A stretch of 64,000 nt of DNA from an uncultured Planctomycetota bacterium (GCA_963719315.1 CAVRBU010000006.1:246801-310800), one strand, 5' to 3'; shown: positions 1 to 14,700, numbered from the stretch's first letter. A program made the numbers and translations. The notes: a model not told the origin generated them from the letters alone.

Positions 1-68
1 ACGCTGCGATCCCGCGGCCGCCCCAGAAAACCGGCGGAGCCGAATTCTGATGTTGGCGCCACGAGCCG

Positions 69-90
69 AAAATGACTCCCGTCGCCTTTA
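69..90 (-). repeat. Module-boundary motif copy A (TAAAGGCGACGGGAGTCATTTT on minus strand)
   Basis: Near-identical to copies at 915-935, 2659-2680, 2909-3930 (IS-split) and 4524-4540. Confidence 0.75.
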
Positions 91-172
91 CTTCATTCAA
101 TTGCAGTTTTATACCCCTCTGTTAGAATGTTCCTCTTGGGACTATAAAGCATCCAAATGTAGGAGCGCGCTA

Positions 173-901
173 ATGAGATTATCACTTCGTGTTTGCACTT
201 CGGTATCCACTTGTGTTGTCGCGTTTATCGGCGTGCGAATGACTCAAGCCACGGAATTTGTCGTTAGTTACAAACAGAATATCTATGGTGCTGGGCTCCC
301 TTACACTCCTGACATAATTGGTGATGGTCTGCCGCCATCCGTGTTTTATTTCACGGCAGGACCTAATCAGGCCGTTACATTTTCACCAGCTAGTGGAACA
401 GTCAATGGTTTTGGCGGAACGAGGCCCAGTACTGACAATCCAGATGGCTATGGCCCAAGTTCAAATCCGTTTCCCCCTGGTCAGTCTCCGACGGCACCGG
501 CTGATTACCCCGGCTTCATGGGTTTGTCGGGACTGCGAGATGTGAACAACTCAGGCTACTTGATTGGTGTATTTCTGACCGACTCGCCGCCAGCCCAGCC
601 GGCACCGCCAACTCTCGACTTTTCCAACAATAAGTCGTTCGCGAGCCTATCACCACTGACTGGTCAATTGTTCTTTATCGGCGACGGACTTACGGGGACA
701 GGGACAGGTGATGTGCAGAAGTTTCTCGTCCCGCCAACCGCGACACGACTTTACATGGGGTTTATAGACTCATTCTTTGTGGACAATCTCGGAGCAATAA
801 CTGCAAACGTCGAGATCAGTATGGTCCCAGAACCTTCTGCCTTGCTGTTGCTCGGCATTGGTGAGGTCGGTCTGCTCGGCTATCGCAAACGCACTCGCTA
901 A
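173..901 (+). CDS. PEP-CTERM sorting domain surface protein
   Basis: AGGAG at 161-165 before ATG 173; signal-like N-terminus; C-terminus VPEPSALLLLGIG...RKRTR. Confidence 0.85.
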   Translation: MRLSLRVCTSVSTCVVAFIGVRMTQATEFVVSYKQNIYGAGLPYTPDIIGDGLPPSVFYFTAGPNQAVTFSPASGTVNGFGGTRPSTDNPDGYGPSSNPFPPGQSPTAPADYPGFMGLSGLRDVNNSGYLIGVFLTDSPPAQPAPPTLDFSNNKSFASLSPLTGQLFFIGDGLTGTGTGDVQKFLVPPTATRLYMGFIDSFFVDNLGAITANVEISMVPEPSALLLLGIGEVGLLGYRKRTR

Positions 902-914
902 TCAGTCTTTAGCC

Positions 915-935
915 AAAAATGACTCCCTCCCCTTG
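915..935 (-). repeat. Module-boundary motif copy B
   Basis: aaaaatgactccctccccttg; reverse complement AAGGGGA-GGGAGTCATTTTT, just after the PEP-CTERM stop. Confidence 0.7.
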
Positions 936-991
936 ATTCCATCCGCGAGGTTGAGCGACTGATTGATTCGTTGTCCTGGCTGGTAGTACCA

Positions 992-1789
992 ATGGCTAGA
1001 CGTAATCCATTTGATGGAGTCATTGTCAAACGAATGTCCACCCAGGAAGGCTACCTCTACACTTTCGATAAGAATGACCGCCTGTGTTGGGATAAAGAAA
1101 ATGCGGAGCGAGTTATTCTCCATCAAGACTTGCGCAGAGATTATGAGGGAATGCGCGTAGGACAACTTGGATGGACGGTGCCGGGCACTACGGACGGATA
1201 CGAGAGGATTGACGTTCAATTCGACTGTGGACAACGCCTGACGCTGAAAACCTGTTTCCTACTCCGCGTCCCACCAGAAAACGCAAGCACACTTGCGCAG
1301 GCGATGATTGACGAGTACCGAGGCACCATGCAGGATGCAGACCCGGAGGCAGCACAAGCAGCGAAAGTCGCCGCGATTAAAGGGTTGTACGACGACAAAA
1401 TCGACTATGCCGACTTAGTGCAAATGGGTGACGGTCCCCAGCAGGTGTATGCGTTCACTTATCCAAGTCTTGTTGAATTGGCGCACCTGAAACAGCAAGA
1501 GTTCTATCCCATCAAGATCGGATATACGGCAGATTGGGACTTCGGTGCTTTCAGTCGTTTGAATATGCTAATCCAGGACGGCACGGCATTGCCTGAAAAA
1601 CTACATCTCCTTTTCGTCATCAAGTGTAAAGACGGTCGGGCCATCGAGACTGCCATACAGCGAATCCTGCGCACCAAGCAACGTTGCGTGAAAACTGCCA
1701 TTGGTCGAGAGTGGTTCCTGAGCAATGTGGAGGAGCTTCACCGTCTCTTTGAACAGTGCATGGAAATGGAGCGCAACCAGGATTGTTGA
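992..1789 (+). CDS. GIY-YIG-like / T5orf172 domain protein
   Basis: C-terminal VYAF...IKIGYT...IETAIQRILR...GREWF motifs typical of T5orf172/MUG113. Confidence 0.7.
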   Translation: MARRNPFDGVIVKRMSTQEGYLYTFDKNDRLCWDKENAERVILHQDLRRDYEGMRVGQLGWTVPGTTDGYERIDVQFDCGQRLTLKTCFLLRVPPENASTLAQAMIDEYRGTMQDADPEAAQAAKVAAIKGLYDDKIDYADLVQMGDGPQQVYAFTYPSLVELAHLKQQEFYPIKIGYTADWDFGAFSRLNMLIQDGTALPEKLHLLFVIKCKDGRAIETAIQRILRTKQRCVKTAIGREWFLSNVEELHRLFEQCMEMERNQDC

Positions 1790-2147
1790 ATTCGCCAACT
1801 ACGATCCAAAATCACCAAAAACACCGACGCTATACATGCCAGTTACCTACCGGTTGTGCCGCGAATTCCTCACCATTGTTTCCCGCCACTGACTCCCACA
1901 AAAAACAGAGAAAACTCACCGACTACAACTATGACACCTGAAAACATGACGACACCGAAGAAAAAGTTCAAAACAGCATGGTTTGTAAGTACCCTCGCTT
2001 CACCAGTCATCCTACGCATCTGGAGGCCGACGTTCGATACGCCCCATGCTCTGCCAAATGGTCTTGCGCCACTCTTCGTGTAACGCTTCGCTTTGTGTGC
2101 GCTTGAACCATTCATCCGACTGTGAGTCCAAAATCTGAATCCCTAGG

Positions 2148-2597
2148 TCAATTCGCATCGCAGTTACCATTATCCGCGATGGCTTGAGTCAGTGCGTCAT
2201 AGTTAGCACGGCTGAACACACCGAATCCATGATCCTCAGCAATGTTGAGCAATTCATGGTTGGCTCGCATTACGATGACGCTGAGAGCAATCACGCGCGC
2301 ACCGCCAAACACTTGTAGACGGCTGTGGGCCGCAACGATTGCTCGATTGCTTTTGTCAAAGTCCTGTACCGATGCGTGGCGTATCGCTTCAGCATTCTCA
2401 TCGACGGCCGCAAGCATCCGCTCATAGACGTTGAATCGTTCCTGCCAAAGCCGCTCCGCCATTGGCTCCCAACGTGATGCGCGGCGGTATGCTTCCGTTT
2501 TCCGAAGTTGCCACCATGCGGCAAACAATGCTAAGGCCGTGCCGCCAAGTGCGCCTAACGCGGATAGTAAGATGGTCTGCCACCAAGGCGCTTGCAT
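2148..2597 (-). CDS. Hypothetical membrane-anchored protein
   Basis: 149-aa ORF with an N-terminal hydrophobic helix followed by a helical domain. Confidence 0.6.
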   Translation of the reverse strand: MQAPWWQTILLSALGALGGTALALFAAWWQLRKTEAYRRASRWEPMAERLWQERFNVYERMLAAVDENAEAIRHASVQDFDKSNRAIVAAHSRLQVFGGARVIALSVIVMRANHELLNIAEDHGFGVFSRANYDALTQAIADNGNCDAN

Positions 2598-2658
2598 TGT
2601 CTATATCCAGTACCAGGCAAGTCCGAAAATCAGCAGCACTAGGAATCAAAGTAAACTC

Positions 2659-2680
2659 TAAAGGTAACGGGAGTCATTTT
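2659..2680 (+). repeat. Module-boundary motif copy C (TAAAGGTAACGGGAGTCATTTT)
   Basis: Direct match to consensus of the other copies. Confidence 0.75.
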
Positions 2681-2890
2681 ATTGAGATCACGAGCACCGT
2701 TGCTATACGGCTCGTCAAAAACTCTCACCTCGCCACAAACGGTCGTGCTCTCCGGACTTTGTTCCCTCCGGGCCTTGGCGCTGGCGTTTTCCACAACAAT
2801 TCTTGAACATCCTTCCGCTCCCACATCGACAACGGCGATTCCCTGCCGGCTTGCTCGATCCGCGCTTAGCGATTGCCCGCCTTTGCAGCG
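2669..2890 (-). pseudogene. Diverged duplicate of the 3' end and downstream flank of the SEC-C gene (4528-4749)
   Basis: Colinear ~220-bp match encoding QRRAIAKRGSSKPAGNRRCRCGSGRMFKNCCGKRQRQG; no 5' part of the gene. Confidence 0.85.
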
Positions 2891-2922
2891 AGGAAAAAAA
2901 GAGGAAAAAAAGGGAACGGGAG

Positions 2923-3914
2923 TGCTCAGTAGAAAACGTCTGAATGCTAGCTAAACATCGGTGTGTGTTGGTTCGTATGACGGTGGATGAAGACGAGCAA
3001 GAGTCCGAAGCGCGTGTTGGTCGAGGCACTGGCCGTGGCCCAGGCTTCGCTGCCGCGGTACTCGCATCGGTTCAGCCCACGGGTCTTCACGCAGCATCAA
3101 CTGTTTGCCTGTCTGGTGCTCAAGGATTTTTACAACCTGACCTATCGGGGCACCGTTGGCCTGTTGGCGGACAGCGATTCGCTGTGCGAAGCGATCGGCC
3201 TGGAAAAGGTGCCCCACTTCACGACGCTGCAAAAGTCGGCCGATCGGTTGTTGGTGAAGAAGTCGTTTCAACGGCTGATCACGGCCACGGTCCAGCGGGC
3301 ACGGAAGGCCAAGCTGCTCCGCCGCTCCGTGCGATTGGCAGCCATCGACACCAGCGGCTTCGAAGCGCGGCACACCAGTCGCTACTATGCCTGGCGTCGA
3401 AAAAAGGTGGGAAAACACGGACGAACGTGCGCCGTCTCCTATCGCCGCTACCCCAAGCTGGGCGTGGTCTGCGACACGACGAGTCATTTCTGCCTGGCGG
3501 CCCGGGCTAGCCAGGGACCGCGGCCCGACTTCGGCGATTTCCGCCCGCTCGTCGTCGAAGCGCAGGCTCGCACCGGAGTGAAGGCGGTCGCGGCGGACGC
3601 CGGCTTCGACAGCGAAGCCAACCACGTGTTGGCCCGCGACGAACTGGGGATTCAGTCCCTGATCCCCGCCGAGCACGGCCGACCGCCGGCCGGGGAACCC
3701 GTGGGCCGCTATCGAAAGCAGATGAAACGTCATTTGCACGAAAGTCGTTATGGACAACGTTGGCAGGTGGAAACCGTCTACTCGATGATCAAACGTCTCT
3801 CGGGAGAAGTCGTCAACGCCCGCACCCACTGGCGCCGCTGCCGACTCCTGCTCCTCAAAACACTCACTCACAACATCTCGATTCTCAGACAACACCTAGG
3901 TTTTCTACTGAGCA
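2923..3914 (+). mobile_element. Insertion sequence, 992 bp, IS5/IS4-superfamily DDE element
   Basis: Perfect 15-bp TIRs TGCTCAGTAGAAAAC (2923-2937) / GTTTTCTACTGAGCA (3900-3914); 9-bp direct repeat GAACGGGAG at 2914-2922 and 3915-3923. Confidence 0.92.
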
Positions 3915-3958
3915 GAACGGGAGTCATTTCTACGGGAAGTGTCGCTCGTCTCCTATAG
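2987..3958 (+). CDS. DDE transposase (DDE_Tnp_1-like)
   Basis: AIDTSG, ADAGFDS and YGQRWQVETVYSMIKR (YREK-type) motifs; ORF runs past the right TIR. Confidence 0.9.
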   Translation: MKTSKSPKRVLVEALAVAQASLPRYSHRFSPRVFTQHQLFACLVLKDFYNLTYRGTVGLLADSDSLCEAIGLEKVPHFTTLQKSADRLLVKKSFQRLITATVQRARKAKLLRRSVRLAAIDTSGFEARHTSRYYAWRRKKVGKHGRTCAVSYRRYPKLGVVCDTTSHFCLAARASQGPRPDFGDFRPLVVEAQARTGVKAVAADAGFDSEANHVLARDELGIQSLIPAEHGRPPAGEPVGRYRKQMKRHLHESRYGQRWQVETVYSMIKRLSGEVVNARTHWRRCRLLLLKTLTHNISILRQHLGFLLSRTGVISTGSVARLL

Positions 3959-3978
3959 CCTCTCCCAATGTCGGAAGA

Positions 3979-4248
3979 TTAGTAGTGATAGCGGCAGGCC
4001 AGGATGCGGATTCTCTCGTTGCTTAATTGGTATACCAAACGATGTTCGTCATCAATCCGCTTGGACCAGCACCCGGCGAGCTCGTGTTTGAGTGGTTCTG
4101 GTTTGCCAACGCCGCCGAACGGATCGGTGGAGGTTTCCTGGACAAGCCGGAGAATGCGCGTCGCCTTCTTGCGATCGTGCTGGATCCACCAGGCCAGATC
4201 GTCGAGCGCGGCGGCGTCAAATTCCAAGCTTCTGGCGGGCTTCGTCAA
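3979..4248 (-). CDS. yoeB: Txe/YoeB family toxin
   Basis: DPFGGVGKPEPLKHELAGCWSKRIDDEHRLVY...CRYHY; probable TTG start overlapping the antitoxin. Confidence 0.9.
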   Translation of the reverse strand: MTKPARSLEFDAAALDDLAWWIQHDRKKATRILRLVQETSTDPFGGVGKPEPLKHELAGCWSKRIDDEHRLVYQLSNERIRILACRYHY

Positions 4249-4429
4249 GCGTAACGCCTCCGATTCGATCCTTGGCTTCGAGAAGACGCTTGCGCATGGC
4301 ATCGCTATTGAGCAGGTAGGCGGTTTCGCGCTCAGATTCGATTTCGCGCCAGACTTCAATTGGCACAATCACGGCGATCGCGTTGCCACTGTCGTCGGAG
4401 ACGTATTGAACGGGCGTGTCGGCGGGCAT
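4217..4429 (-). CDS. Antitoxin (Phd/YefM-like)
   Basis: 70 aa directly upstream of YoeB; ETAYLLNS...RLLEA motif. Confidence 0.8.
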   Translation of the reverse strand: MPADTPVQYVSDDSGNAIAVIVPIEVWREIESERETAYLLNSDAMRKRLLEAKDRIGGVTLDEARQKLGI

Positions 4430-4523
4430 TTTTACAATTGCAAAACCAGTGGTGGGGCGGTTCGAATGCGTATTTTATTATACCCGAATTTACCGGCCGC
4501 ACGTGGGGAAATACACGGTGATA

Positions 4524-4540
4524 TAAAGGGAGTCATTTTC
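4524..4540 (+). repeat. Module-boundary motif copy E (internally shortened, TAAAGGGAGTCATTTTC)
   Basis: Lies between the SEC-C gene and the TA pair. Confidence 0.65.
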
Positions 4541-4615
4541 TTGAGATCACGAGCATGGTTGCTATACGGCTCGCCAAAAATTCTTCCCGCGACGCGGACG
4601 GTCTCCCTCTACGTC

Positions 4616-5479
4616 CTATCTTCCCTCTTGGCCTTGGCGCTGGCGTTTTCCACAACAATTCTTGAACATCTTTCCGCTCCCACATCGGCAACGGCGATTC
4701 CCTGCCGGCTTCGTTGATCCGCGCTTAGCGATTGCCCGCCTTTGCTGCGCCGATATCCCGGCCGGCCGGGAATCTTTCGCATCGTCGCACCATTGTGACG
4801 GGGTCGATCCCTCATAGCGGACATGGGATGAAGCGCCCCGCTCCAGGAAACCACGGATCAATGGGGCCGGGTCCTCGCGTCCGTCATCTACGCCCATGCT
4901 CAGCTTGCGTTGCCATGCCGCCGATTCGTCGCTGCTCAGAACCCCCAAGGGAAGCGCCGCGCCAGTCGTCGTGACGAACGCACCAAAGTCCAGCAGCCGT
5001 GTCGCAAGCAACACGCCGGGCCGTGCCGTTTCGGAGAAACCCATGTCAACCAGCAGTCGCGTCTCGTCTGTAAACAAGTTCTTGATATGACAACCCACGC
5101 CCGGCTCGATGCGAGTCACGATTACCAGCGCATACTTGGCATGGCGCATCGCCTGCAAGCACGCCATCTCGTCGGAGTCAGGATCGGGCGAATGGTCTTG
5201 CAGGTATTGGTCAATCGCATTACGACCGCTGCGATAAACGTCGTAGATGCAGTAATCCATCAGCACCGAGGACTCGTCTTCGTTGTCGAAGACGAATGTT
5301 CCGCGCCGCAGGATGCCAAGTTTCTTGCCCCCTTCCTCGAGCGCATTGCGCGAAAGCCGTCCAACCAGTTCATTGTTCAGACGCAAGCGCAGCGGGCGAA
5401 GTCGCTGGTAGAGAGCAACAATCTCTGCCGTGTCCGTGGGCTGGCTGGGTCCGTGCTTGAGGAATCCGAAGAGACCCAT
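4616..5479 (-). CDS. SEC-C motif (zinc-binding) domain protein
   Basis: C-terminal NRRCRCGSGKMFKNCCG; AGGAGGTGA RBS upstream. Confidence 0.85.
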   Translation of the reverse strand: MGLFGFLKHGPSQPTDTAEIVALYQRLRPLRLRLNNELVGRLSRNALEEGGKKLGILRRGTFVFDNEDESSVLMDYCIYDVYRSGRNAIDQYLQDHSPDPDSDEMACLQAMRHAKYALVIVTRIEPGVGCHIKNLFTDETRLLVDMGFSETARPGVLLATRLLDFGAFVTTTGAALPLGVLSSDESAAWQRKLSMGVDDGREDPAPLIRGFLERGASSHVRYEGSTPSQWCDDAKDSRPAGISAQQRRAIAKRGSTKPAGNRRCRCGSGKMFKNCCGKRQRQGQEGR

Positions 5480-5513
5480 GATTCACCTCCTTGTCGGAAT
5501 AATAAAGGGGACG

Positions 5514-7391
5514 TTAGCGGTCGATGTGATATTGCTCGATCTTTCGATACAGCGTGGCCCTGCCGATGCCCAGCAGCTTGGCCGCTTCGGGGACGTTGTC
5601 GGCCGTGCGGTTGAGGGCTTCGGTGATGAGGCGTTTTTCCCATTCGTCGATCCGGAGCGTTTCCAGCTCGCTGCTGCCGGAGTCGCGAAGGGCCAAGTCC
5701 TGCGGGCGGATCGAGTCTTCGTCGGCCAGCACGACGGCGCTATCCAGCACGTTGCGAAGCTGCCTGACGTTGCCGGGCCAGCGATAGGCGATCAGCTTCG
5801 CGCGGGCCGCGTCGGACAGGCCGAGGTTCGGTCGGCCGTGTAGCCGGCGGAAGTGATCCAGGAAGAAATCCATGAGGAGCGGGAGGTCTTCGCCCCGGTC
5901 ACGGAGCGGCGGCAGGTACAACTCGAAAACGCTGAGTCGATAGTACAAGTCTTCGCGAAAACGCTTGTCGCGAACATAGGTTTGCAAGTTCTGGTTCGTC
6001 GCCGCGATGACGCGGACATCCACGCTGATTTCTTCCGTCGCGCCGACCGGCAGAAACGGATGGCCTTCGAGAATCCGCAGCAGCTTCGCCTGTCCCTCGA
6101 GCGTCAGCTCGCCGACTTCGTCCAGGAAGAGCGTGCCCAGATCGGCCTGTTGGAAGAATCCGATGTGGTCGCGGTCGGCACTAGTAAACGAGCCGGCCTT
6201 GTGGCCAAACAGTTGGCTCTCGATGAGGTCGCCCGGAATGGCGGCGCAATTGACCGAGACCATGGGCCGATCGGCCCGCGGGCTGGTGCGATGGATGGCC
6301 CGCGCCACGAGCTCCTTGCCGGAGCCGCTCTCGCCGCGGACCAGCACGCAACCCGGTGCGCGGGCGACACGATTGATTTTCGATTTGAGATCGCGCATCG
6401 GCGGGCAGTTGCCGATGAGTTCGTCGTGGCCGGGCGATTTTTCGACGAGCCGCTGGTAATCGCTTTGGAGGGTCGTCAGGGCGCGGGCCCGCACGAGCGA
6501 AATGGCCACGATGTTGGCCACCGAGATGATGAAGTCGAAATCCGACTGGCGGAATCGGCCGTCTTCCAAATACACGTGGATCGCACCGAGCGTCGTGCGT
6601 TCGCCGTCTTCGTTGCGGCGGACGAGCGGCGCGCAGACGGCGTCGGCAAAATGGCCCAAGTCTCGGGTACCCTCTGGGTGGCCTTCTTTCGACGCCTGAT
6701 TTGCCACCCACACCGCGTGCCCTTGTCGCGAGACGAGCTCGGTGAGCGATTGATTGAGCGTGACGCGGTTGGCCGCGTCTTTGGGAATCACCAGCTTCGG
6801 TTGCAGGCTGCCCTCATCGCTGACCGATAGGAATCCGACGACCGATGCGCTGGTGCGCTTCCGCAACAAATCGAGTGCGATTTCGAGCACGCGATTCGGA
6901 TCGCCGCAGCCGAGCAGCTTGATGCAAAGTTGGTAGAGCAGCATCAACTCTTTGACTTGCTCGGTACTGGGCAGGCCGGCGAGCGCATCTTCGTGCGATT
7001 CTTGCACGGCGATCGGCAGGTCTTGCACGATCGTCTGCATGAGCTGCGGATCGTCGCCCTTGGCCGTGGGCGGCTCCTCGGATTCGTGGAATTCGAACTC
7101 GGCCGAGCCGACGCGGATCGTGTTGCCGTCGATGACCGTCGCTTCGTCGATCTTCTGGCCATTGACGAGGGTGCCGTTGCGGCTGCCGTCATCGCGAATG
7201 ACCCAGCCGTCGGGAGTGGAGGTGAGCGTGGCGTGAACGCGCGAGCAGAGCGGATCCTGCAATGAAATGTGGCAATCGGTGCCCCGGCCGATGAGCGTGG
7301 TGCGGCGGGAATCGAGCGGAAAATTGGTGCCGGCGCGAGGGCCCGTGAGGATCGTAAGATATGCGTAAAGTCCGCGGCTGGTGACCGTCAT
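5514..7391 (-). CDS. Sigma-54-dependent transcriptional activator (FHA-GAF-AAA+-Fis HTH)
   Basis: FHA (IGR..SRVH..SRNGT), GESGSGKE, GSFTSA (GAFTGA variant), LFLDEVGEL, WPGNVRQL, LGIGRATLYRKI. Confidence 0.92.
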   Translation of the reverse strand: MTVTSRGLYAYLTILTGPRAGTNFPLDSRRTTLIGRGTDCHISLQDPLCSRVHATLTSTPDGWVIRDDGSRNGTLVNGQKIDEATVIDGNTIRVGSAEFEFHESEEPPTAKGDDPQLMQTIVQDLPIAVQESHEDALAGLPSTEQVKELMLLYQLCIKLLGCGDPNRVLEIALDLLRKRTSASVVGFLSVSDEGSLQPKLVIPKDAANRVTLNQSLTELVSRQGHAVWVANQASKEGHPEGTRDLGHFADAVCAPLVRRNEDGERTTLGAIHVYLEDGRFRQSDFDFIISVANIVAISLVRARALTTLQSDYQRLVEKSPGHDELIGNCPPMRDLKSKINRVARAPGCVLVRGESGSGKELVARAIHRTSPRADRPMVSVNCAAIPGDLIESQLFGHKAGSFTSADRDHIGFFQQADLGTLFLDEVGELTLEGQAKLLRILEGHPFLPVGATEEISVDVRVIAATNQNLQTYVRDKRFREDLYYRLSVFELYLPPLRDRGEDLPLLMDFFLDHFRRLHGRPNLGLSDAARAKLIAYRWPGNVRQLRNVLDSAVVLADEDSIRPQDLALRDSGSSELETLRIDEWEKRLITEALNRTADNVPEAAKLLGIGRATLYRKIEQYHIDR

Positions 7392-7550
7392 AGTATCGCC
7401 CGGCGAATTCGGCGGAACGGGAGCGAAACTGCATGGTACACCAGCGCGGGCCGGCTTGGAATTGGCCCGGCGATGCGGATAATGGCGTTGTTCGGTTGGG
7501 GCTCCCGCCACCGACAGCAGTACCAATACTCAAGCATTAAGGAAAGCGAC

Positions 7551-11739: not shown

Positions 11740-14700
11740 CTACCGCTCGACGATCGTGGCGTCGAGATTGAGGATCGACTGACAGACGACCGTTAGTGCC
11801 GCGAGGTTTGCCGGCGGCAATTTCGAATCCAGCTTCGCATCGCCGAGATGGAGGAAGTCGGCTACATCTTTCTGTCCGGCTTTCGTAAAAACTTCAACTT
11901 GCTCGGTATACAGGTCGGTCAGCAGGGCAAGTTCGGTAGCATCCGGATGGCGGCCGGTAAGCCGCAAATAGACCTCGTCAATTTGTTGGTCCAGAGCGGA
12001 ATGCGCTTTGGACGTGATGCACGCCAGGGCGCGTGCCGCTTCGACGAATTGCACGTCGTTCAACAGGACGAGCGCTTGGAGCGGCGTGTTCGTGCGGCTA
12101 CGAGAAACCGTGCACACTTCGCGCGTCGGCGCGTCGAACGCCGCCATGTTGGGCAGAGGCGCCGTGCGCTTCCAAACGGAGTACAACGAACGACGATATA
12201 AATCCTTTCCAACCGATTGGTGGTACGCGGGCGACATGCTGTTGGCTTCGCGCCACAGATCCTCGCCCGGCTGATAGGGCGATACGGGCGGGCCGCCCAT
12301 GCGTCGGTCGAGCAGGCCAGAGGCCGCGAGCGCGGCGTCGCGGATTTCTTCCCCTTCCAGGCGACGACTTGGGCCGCGCGCCAGCAGTCGGTTTTCTGGA
12401 TCGCGCGCCCGGAGCTCCGGCGGGCAGCGTGAATCCTGCTGATAGGTTGCCGAGAGCACGATCGTCCGACATAGGCGTTTAATGTCCCAACCGTGGTCAA
12501 TGAAATCGCGGGCTAGCCAATCGAGCAACTCGGGATGCGTCGGCAACGCGCCTTGTTGGCCAAAATTCTCGGGAGTGGATACAATCCCGCGGCCGAAGAA
12601 ATTGGCCCACAAGCGATTCACAAATACTCGAGCGGTGAGCGGATGACGAGGGTCGGTGAGCCATTCCGCCAGGCCAAGTCGATTCCGAGGCGCTTGCGGC
12701 GGAAACGGAATCAGAATTTTAGAGAACGTATCGCGTCCGACGCGGTTCGCGTCCGTCTTCGGCGCATCGTAAGCGCCGCGAGTTAGAATGTACGTCGGCC
12801 GCGGCTCCGGCAGCTCCTGCATCACGGAAACTTCCTGCAAAGTTTCTTCCAGATCGACCAGCTCGTGCCGGGCATCGCGGAGGGTTTGCGTCGCATTGCG
12901 GGCATTCTCGTCAATGGCTGTAAAGTAATAATCGGCGAGAGCATCGCGATGCAACTTTTTATCGGCCAACGCGCCTTTGAGAGAAACTCCATCGTGAAGG
13001 GTTTGGATTTCCAGCAGTGGTAGAGCGCGTCCATAAATTCGAAATTCGTCGAAATCGCCGTTCCTAAAGCCCCGGTCGCGGAAGCGCTCGCCGATCATTA
13101 GTTTGCCTGCGCCGTACGTGGGCACTGAGGCCTTTTTATAGATGTGGTCGCGAAGAACGTCGGTGGGCTGCTGCTTGCCGTCCACGAACAGCTTCAGGCC
13201 GCTGGCGGTGCTTGAGCCGTCGTACGAGACGGCAATGTGTTGCCACTTTTTCGATGCGATGGGCTGCTGAGATCGCACGCCGATGCCGTTGCCGGGCCAA
13301 ATCCGATAGAGCCGAGCTTCGAGGATGCCGCCGTGCAGCATCAGGTCGAAGCCGTTAAAACCAACGTCGGTGCCAAACGTGCGCTGGAGCACTACGACGG
13401 GTTGCTGGTTCACCTCGTTGTCGCGAATCCAGAAGTCGAGCGTGAAGGGGTCCCAGCGATCGGATTCGAAAACGCCCGTGAAGGTCGCTCCTTTATCGCC
13501 GTCAAGGTGAAGTCCTTGCCGGCGAATACCCGCAACGCGTTGGACACCGGCAGCGGAGCCCTTTCCCATTCCGCCAGGCGCCTCGTTGTTGAGTGCCGCT
13601 GATTCTCCGTCGAACGAAAAGTACGCCTGCAAATCGACATCAGCCACCGGCGATGCGGCGGCGAGCCAATCGTCGAAACGCTGCCGACCATCGGCGATTG
13701 TTTTTTGCAGCGTCGCTTCTGCCTGAGTGATCTTTTGACGCACGGCCGCAAGTTGTTTCTCTTGCTCGCCCGTTGGCAAGAGCAGCGATGGAGCGGGCAC
13801 TTTAGACTGGTGATCGTACAAACCGTTTTCGTCGATCGAATTGAAAAACGCGGTCAGCGAATAATAGTCGCGCATCGTCAACGAATCATATTTATGGTCA
13901 TGGCAACGGCAGCATTCGACTGTTAAGCCTAAGATCGCGGTACCCAGCGTGTGGACGCGGTCGGAGACACCTTCGGTGCGAAATTCTTCAGCGATACTGC
14001 CGCCTTCGTTCGTCATCCGGTTGAGGCGGTTGAAGGCAGTGGCCAGAATTTGGTCGCGAGTGGGATTCGCGAGCAAATCGCCCGCCAACTGCCAGGTAAG
14101 AAACTTGTCGTACGGCAAATTGTTGTTGAGCGCACGAACAACCCAATCGCGATACGGCCAAGCGGTGTTGAGTTGATCGGATTGATAGCCGTAGGAATCG
14201 GCGTACCGGGCCGCATCGAGCCAGGCGACCGCCATGTGTTCGCCGAAGGCGGGGCTCGCTAGCAGACGATCGATGACAGCGGCGTACGCGGATTCGACAT
14301 TCGCCGCGGCTGCTCGTTCGAATTCGCGACATTCCTCGGGCGTCGGCGGCAAGCCGGTTAAGTCGAGCGTCACGCGGCGCAGTAAACGCAGCGGCGCTGC
14401 CGCCTTGGCAGGTTGCAGCTTCTTGGATTCCAATCGCGCCAGAACAAGATTATCCAGCGGCTGTCGCGGCCAGGAATCGTCGCCGACCTGCGGAACCGCG
14501 ATCTTTTCGGGCAGCGGTTGAAACGCCCAGTGCTCGGCGAATACCGCGCCCTCGGCAACCCAACGTCGGAGCAGTTCTTTCTGCTCGGGTGAGAGTGAGA
14601 GATTCGAATCGGGCGGCGGCATCCGTTCATCATCATCTTCGCTGAAAATCCGCGTGATGATCTCGCTTTTTTCCGGATTGCCGGGCGCGACGATCTTGCC

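Follow-up and report, generated by a model that had tools for sequence, protein, structure and literature searches.

The 64,000 nt window examined here (G000:C6:246801-310800) comes from the 5.93-Mb assembly, G000, of an uncultured Planctomycetota bacterium, and its first 5.5 kb contain an oriented motif of about 21 bp that recurs between unrelated small genes. An earlier note on this DNA had taken the motif for the recombination or capture site of a non-integron cassette system. The motif is very probably (we put the probability at about 0.85) the terminal inverted repeat (TIR), the equivalent of a repetitive extragenic palindrome (REP), of a RAYT/TIRYT transposase whose gene runs into the left edge of the window, and its copies here lie in a variable hotspot. 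The gene encodes a single-copy Y1/HUH transposase of the REP-associated class (RAYT, TnpA_REP). The oriented, repeated motif was confirmed as real, and its earlier interpretation is partly supported: the guess of a DNA recombination site holds, but not that of a new system, because the motif belongs to the repeat family of a RAYT/TIRYT transposase, and such units have been described as REPtrons and TIRtrons (PMC3733652, PMC6006769).

The comparisons drew on 24 genomes of the genus and, for the transposase, on 41 related genomes. Positions left of the window are given on L001, the stretch of this G000 locus that extends beyond the window; window position 50 corresponds to L001 14050.

The repeat and its transposase gene

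When up to two mismatches were allowed, ACGGGAGTCATTTT matched the window five times, at 69-82 (-), 916-929 (-), 2667-2680 (+), 3917-3930 (+) and 4526-4539 (+), against 0.41 matches expected, and none of 100 shuffled sequences reached five. The core GGAGTCATTT has five exact matches in the window (0.12 expected), all below position 4540, and a scan of the whole window found no copy of the motif in the remaining 58 kb. Across the entire assembly the core occurs 12 times, compared with about 6.8 occurrences expected from base composition, and six of the 12 fall within the 5.2 kb of C6:246114-251329. The sixth member of this cluster, M0, is a perfect copy lying 700 bp left of the window (L001 13304-13325, window -696..-675, + strand), upstream of the transposase gene. 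The copies within the window are M1 (69..90, -), M2 (915..935, -, degenerate), M3 (2659..2680, +), M4 (+), which is split by an insertion sequence (IS) into 2909..2922 and 3917..3930, and M5 (4524..4540, +). To these is added a half copy, M6 (5503..5513, +), where 12 nt at 5502-5513 (ATAAAGGGGACG) are identical to the outer half of M0. The five copies and one half copy described earlier, all between 69 and 5513, were therefore recovered at the positions named, and only the reading of M5 needs revision: it lacks the outer 6 nt and does not have an internal deletion.

M0 and M1 are the two members of an inverted pair that brackets a RAYT/TIRYT-like Y1 (HUH) transposase gene of 229 codons (G000:C6:246161-246850, equal to L001 13361-14050, + strand). 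M0 (+) stands 35 nt before the ATG and M1 (-) 18 nt past the stop codon, and a gene within an inverted pair of short repeats is the defining layout of REPtrons and TIRtrons. A TTGACA hexamer directly follows M0. The earlier observation that no recombinase lies in the window is formally correct, but window positions 1..50 are the last 50 nt of this transposase gene, and the HUH/Y1 (RAYT-like) gene that had been proposed as worth seeking to the left is present there. The protein matches Pfam Y1_Tnp (37.7 bits, cut-off 23) and carries HWH and YVERNP motifs that are invariant in an alignment of 14 sequences. With 13 relatives added, a profile of the protein finds the structure of E. coli TnpA_REP, 4ER8 (E 6.5e-6), and aligns the HUH and Tyr motifs to it.

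Transposase matches at E ≤ 1e-20 were found in 28 of the 41 related genomes, including 20 of 23 from the genus. At six of ten orthologue loci (L003-L012, 75-83% aa identity) the same 20-mer is present in inverted orientation on both sides of the gene; the other four have the repeat on one side or a variant of it, and two of these four are at contig ends. When longer flanks were searched, the inverted pair (≤2 mismatches) was present at six of nine related loci. Orthologues retain GGGGACGGGAGTC, paralogues at 53-60% identity are flanked by the variants GGGGTCAGGACTC, GGGGACGCAGCTC or GGGGACGCGACTC, and the repeat variant co-varies with the transposase clade. The repeat upstream of the gene and of seven orthologues is directly followed by a TTGAC hexamer resembling a -35 element, so that the repeat may also serve the gene's autoregulation as an operator. 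Counts of the exact 13-mer range from 0 to 13 per genome across the 24 genus genomes (84 in total; the reversed-pattern control gave 3 in total). A scan of GTDB genomes with an exact 16-mer, in which 80 of at least 123 loci were read, included among the matches listed seven distinct loci where a RAYT homologue lies between inverted repeat copies spaced about 745-760 bp; the metagenome-assembled genomes (MAGs) concerned are labelled Planctomycetota and Acidobacteriota. By our own arithmetic about 280 matches are expected by chance in the 596 Gb scanned, and isolated matches in unrelated phyla were therefore ignored.

Beyond this locus the repeat takes a different form. There are 12 copies of AAAGGGGACGGGAG in G000, inverted doublets of the repeat are found at five other G000 loci, and elsewhere in G000 and its relatives the repeat occurs mostly as such doublets, which form long hairpins with stems of 12-28 bp (DNA folding z of -5 to -10). 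Singlets fold no better than shuffled sequences (z of -0.8 to +0.6), in agreement with the earlier description of a single copy as non-palindromic. Two other G000 repeat loci that were tested lie in stretches that have no counterpart in relatives and are enclosed by conserved blocks, so that the repeat marks variable hotspots.

The element interrupting M4 is an IS5-family IS (2923..3916, + strand, about 992-994 bp) with a DDE_Tnp_1 domain, scoring 134 bits for the IS5 family, just under the cut-off of 140. As had been proposed, it splits a copy of the motif: it is flanked by a 7-bp target duplication (ACGGGAG), so that the restored M4 site reads AAAGGGAACGGGAGTCATTTC. G000 carries 18 complete copies and one partial copy of this IS, and 12 of the 18 have a perfect 7-bp target duplication. 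By a strict pattern, the insertion point of 14 of the 18 is exactly 7 nt into a repeat of the AAA(N)GGG type, which belongs to the GGGGWSAS kind; the other four are near-matches by eye. The IS thus targets RAYT/TIRYT repeats. IS1397, ISPpu9 and others are reported to target REPs.

G000 has one copy of the transposase gene and one paralogue at 50% identity. This second RAYT-like gene (G000:C2:1311322-1311933, -) has an upstream repeat type of its own, GGGTCAGAAC, followed by a TTGACA hexamer, and a copy of the same IS lies directly past its stop codon, apparently within its downstream repeat. Left of the first transposase gene, the longest open reading frame (ORF) of a PQQ beta-propeller gene (L001 11813-13405, 530 aa) overlaps both M0 and the transposase start; its true start is probably the ATG at L001 13108, since relatives align only from about residue 100. 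Another repeat insertion was noticed in genome G014 (C5, L048 10237-10359), where a hairpin doublet of the GGGGTCAGG family, a sister of the present repeat, lies inside the coding sequence of a SEC-C gene, with one internal TGA; it looks like a fairly recent insertion into the gene.

The accessory island

The repeat copies M2-M6 lie in a segment that is inserted between two conserved genes. The sigma-54-dependent activator gene on the right (5514..7526, -) is present in 23 of 24 genus genomes (E ≤ 1e-100) and the PQQ beta-propeller gene on the left in 22 of 24. In 13 of 16 related loci the two are neighbours, separated by a motif-free spacer of 12-383 bp, whereas 6.4 kb separate them in G000, so that the island is an insertion between core genes. 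The half copy M6 forms its right edge and touches the activator stop codon at 5514, as described earlier, and with M0 it provides 12 nt that stand as a direct repeat at the two ends of the island. A target-site duplication and an att site are candidate readings of this direct repeat; the relatives' empty sites have diverged too far to be aligned. Insertions of 4.2 kb and 13 kb occupy the same site in genomes G004 and G009. The G004 island includes the last 180 nt or so of the transposase gene with an M1-like repeat, in both islands the repeat is joined to the beginning of the SEC-C 3′ flank, and the G009 island consists mostly of IS elements.

All of M1-M6 share one sense and follow a stop codon at 0-75 nt, with 23-94 nt separating them from the next start, which bears out the earlier observation that orientation follows the cargo; a transcript of the gene preceding each copy would read AAAATGACTCCCGT..CCTTTA. 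The cargo begins with a PEP-CTERM protein gene (173..901, +, 51.6% GC), the stop codon of which is 13 nt before M2, and a T5orf172/MUG113-domain protein gene (992..1789, +, 50.9% GC), which is present in only two of the 24 genus genomes. The left-half cargo has a GC content of 49-55%, compared with 58.7% for the genome. Further right is an ORF of 149 aa (2148..2597, -) that matches no family; its label as a membrane protein was given from the sequence alone. It is followed by a SEC-C relic (2715..2900, -), the YefM-YoeB toxin-antitoxin pair (3979..4429, -; YoeB_toxin 108.8 bits, PhdYeFM 23.1 bits and below its cut-off), and the SEC-C-motif protein gene (4616..5479, -). The relic was correctly recognised as such: positions 4524-4749 recur without gaps at 2665-2890, a duplication of 226 nt that takes in the repeat together with the 3′ untranslated region and final part of the SEC-C gene and shows 89% aa identity over residues 243-286.

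The island was also considered as a single composite transposon and rejected as such, as its end repeats are direct, not inverted, and the copy in G014 has no repeat at the SEC-C end. In the soil metagenomes of one study, four runs contain parts of the stretch as low-depth contigs; no joints, circles or empty sites were seen in them, a result that is uninformative in either direction. One of these, an X1 contig, has 39 unlike letters just outside M5 and a fuller repeat, which as a single low-depth contig is a lead only. A metagenome scan with the exact 28-mer of M5 and its flank gave no matches.

Several other features were seen at or near the hotspot. In the G004 island the last 119 nt of the activator gene are present again, in inverted orientation (L022 3287-3405), a sign of rearrangement at this site. 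A short repeat, TCTCACGCAAAGGCGCAAAG, and its variants occur in the activator-PQQ spacer at seven loci (L024, L025, L032, L034, L037, L022 and L033), and a repeat of this type is also found in the 5′ coding part of the G000 PQQ gene (L001 about 13047-13070). Two repeat families of about 470-540 bp were noted as well (L176 9983-10470 and L177 9389-9925); one of the two is present many times, at about 80% identity, in G014, G009 and G015, and the other has at least ten copies in G000, several of them adjoining IS copies or the RAYT paralogue.

Origin of the island copies

If it behaves like E. coli TnpA_REP, the enzyme would act on this repeat, binding, cutting and rejoining single-stranded DNA at its copies, and such cutting and rejoining would spread the repeat as singlets and as hairpin doublets. 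The gene with its inverted pair M0/M1 forms the left end of the 6.4-kb accessory island in the activator-PQQ spacer, and M2-M6 would be old, degenerate singlets that were seeded, or left behind, near the gene. The setting would be a spacer-rich, recombination-prone hotspot that accumulates low-GC accessory genes, a toxin-antitoxin pair and an IS.

A number of observations weigh against identifying the motif as the repeat of such an enzyme, or against this account of its spread. The transposase scores 61.9 bits (residues 5-143) with the NCBIfam equivalog model NF047646 (REP_Tyr_transpos), so that the cut-off of 80 is not reached, and phmmer with the single protein found no match in PDB. The repeat unit has no GTAG tag and is not a classical GTAG-tagged REP hairpin; it has an internal GACG/CGTC but no end tag. 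As GGGGACGG it fits the published TIR consensus GGGGWSAS at only seven of eight positions; sister families in the same genomes (GGGGTCAG) fit it at all eight. G000 has only about 20 repeat copies in total. Genome G006 has 13 exact 13-mers and a best transposase match of 59%, and G005 has seven and no close orthologue, both being incomplete MAGs, so that copies of the repeat and a close orthologue do not always go together. Lastly, local seeding alone explains neither the placement of all six copies after stop codons in one sense nor the breaks in homology at these places.

In a rival reading the transposase would move genes: it would cut and join at same-sense repeats and in this way excise, duplicate and re-insert whole single-gene segments, each as a single-stranded circle with one repeat. 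On this view the island would consist of an array of modules that had been captured, with an integron-like logic but an HUH enzyme. Such motif-mediated shuffling is possible, given that homology blocks break at the motif and that a block of motif and SEC-C gene recurs in another context, but we regard it as unlikely, a judgement that presupposes that the motif is the transposase's repeat and is not to be added to the probability of that identification. Same-sense repeats bound the modules, and three homology blocks end at a motif or within 13 nt of one, but as to gene capture the findings point both ways. The relic duplicate begins inside M3/M5 and stops at an arbitrary point of the gene, where M4 follows. 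The repeat and SEC-C gene are common to G000 and G014 (92-93% nt identity), with homology running from 4528, in M5, to 5496, 7 nt before M6; in G014 the block has a different core context, and a decayed RAYT-like gene accompanied by an M1-like repeat lies 1.5 kb away from it, with other ORFs between the two. This common structure could equally be one larger block that was moved or recombined once. The hotspot islands of G004 and G009 retain remnants of repeat plus flank around differing cargo, although that of G009 is largely made of IS elements. Near the transposase gene of G020 there are four more repeat sites: beyond the gene, one inverted doublet and two singlets of the same sense, and on the opposite side a two-mismatch copy. 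The genes that separate these sites are small and low in GC3 (one of them DUF4304). The sense of the G020 repeats relative to transcription is, however, opposite to that in G000, and only two of ten transposase loci (G000 and G020) have such extra arrays. The G000 copies are degenerate, with one or two mismatches, a deletion and truncations. Most cargo homologues elsewhere are also free of the motif: in the 3.7-5.5 kb examined for each PEP-CTERM homologue of G007, G008 and G009 the repeat is absent (0/3), and none of 33 metagenomic loci of SEC-C homologues has one, the sole two-mismatch match being 2 kb away. The E. coli enzyme TnpA_REP was shown by Ton-Hoang et al. 2012 (PMC3333891) to cleave and recombine BIMEs (bacterial interspersed mosaic elements) in vitro, which is in keeping with such an activity; among the papers listed in a literature search, none describes RAYT-driven gene cassettes, judged by titles and the beginnings of abstracts.

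Rearrangement without any part for the enzyme, by segmental duplication of the transposase flanks, would leave the extra copies as passive remnants. M3 and M5 do belong to one 226-nt duplication, their flank (CATTTT.TTGAGA) resembles that of M0 (CATTTCTTGACA), and flanks of the M1 type recur with transposase 3′ remnants in G004 and G014. But M2 and M4 share nothing beyond the repeat itself with the transposase flanks, and the doublets at unrelated loci, as well as the sister-family doublet inside the G014 SEC-C gene, indicate that the repeat moves on its own, making an origin as remnants improbable. Least probable is that the repeat is kept as a transcription or RNA element, acting as a terminator, an mRNA stabiliser or the promoter or operator of the next gene. 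This would suit the uniform position of the six island copies between stop and start codons and the TTGAC hexamers beside the transposase genes, and REPs in general lie mostly downstream of genes (PMC3733652). The singlets, however, have no significant structure or T-run, the copies elsewhere are doublets that read in both directions, and the genome has only 12 occurrences of the core, six of which are here. The earlier note had named a promoter or transcription-factor site as the alternative that would count against it; the motif has few copies in the genome, is found in variable regions only and has the opposite sense relative to transcription in the G020 array, and is thus not a general promoter or transcription-factor site. 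Inspection by eye gave no sigma-70 promoter, as ATGACT in M1-M3 has no consistent -10 element at 17 nt, and no likeness to the sigma-54 consensus (TGGCAC-N5-TTGC).

Also in favour of shuffling, doublets 0.5-1.1 kb apart surround small genes in genomes G002, G004 and G006, one of these genes being SUKH-1/SMI1-KNR4. Examples of small low-GC3 genes between doublets in relatives are at L039 3958-4497 and L038 9269-9748. SUKH-1/SMI1-KNR4 and DUF4304, both represented among such genes, are families that we take to be immunity-protein-like, which suggests that these genes form orphan immunity-gene arrays.

Relation to described systems

The classical REPtron, as Nunvar 2010 and Bertels & Rainey 2011 are said to have described it, is a RAYT gene with GTAG-tagged REPs, REPINs or BIMEs. 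The present locus resembles it in having a domesticated Y1 transposase, present in one copy and bracketed by its own repeats, REPIN-like doublets that form long hairpins, co-variation of repeat and transposase, and the profile match to 4ER8. It differs in that the repeat unit is not a stem-loop (in the classical case 20-40 bp with an unpaired GTAG/CGTC tag) and has no GTAG, in its tens of copies compared with hundreds, and in a protein that falls under the NCBIfam equivalog cut-off.

A closer counterpart is the TIRtron. In Di Nocera et al. 2013 (PMC3733652), RAYT-like genes flanked by inverted repeats rather than REP hairpins are termed TIRYTs and the units TIRtrons, a TIRYT being a long form with a C-terminal extension. 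Many TIRs are stated there to share GGGGWSAS and their families to be moderately abundant, in dimers or clusters, and the planctomycete R. baltica is noted to have many of both. In Quentin et al. 2018 (PMC6006769), most TIRYTs are placed in TnpA_REP subclass 2.1, which is long, has a C-terminal extension and carries the class-2 signature Y---NP. The G000 protein (about 230 aa, RAYT-like Y1, with HUH and Y---NP motifs) agrees with this, a likeness drawn from the published description of subclass 2.1. The gene is likewise flanked by inverted repeats of about 20 bp in which GGGG is followed by a W-S-A-S-like run, and this repeat is moderately abundant, standing singly, in dimers or in clusters. 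The differences are the repeat sequence itself, which agrees with GGGGWSAS at seven of eight positions, and the five degenerate singlets interleaved with accessory genes beside the gene, which set it apart from the TIRtrons in the parts of these papers seen.

With integron cassette arrays the island has in common short oriented sites between single, unrelated and variably present genes. No IntI-type tyrosine recombinase was found among the ORFs scanned in the island and its immediate flanks, where the only recombinases are the Y1 transposase and the IS5 DDE transposase. The sites are non-palindromic and degenerate, unlike the palindromic attC, and they form two converging arrays rather than one behind a common promoter. 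As a gene-plus-site unit in other contexts, only the repeat with SEC-C in G014 was found, and most cargo homologues elsewhere, including PEP-CTERM and distant SEC-C, have no site. The transposase shares the Y1/HUH catalytic fold with IS200/IS605 elements, from which the locus differs in having one gene copy and a 50%-identical paralogue, not several near-identical copies, and ends that are inverted repeats, not distinct left and right subterminal hairpins.

What looked like a new cassette system thus becomes an example of a described kind, a RAYT/TIRYT transposase with its repeat family, and a well-resolved one for planctomycetes, where repeat and transposase co-vary across the genus and an IS targets the repeats. 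For annotation, the 21-bp motif signals that a TIRtron is present and that the space between two core genes is a hypervariable hotspot. The homology breaks bounded by repeats offer a testable case for a role of a domesticated transposase in local gene shuffling; if that were true, RAYT loci would be small gene-shuffling platforms in planctomycetes, an HUH-enzyme analogue of the integron.

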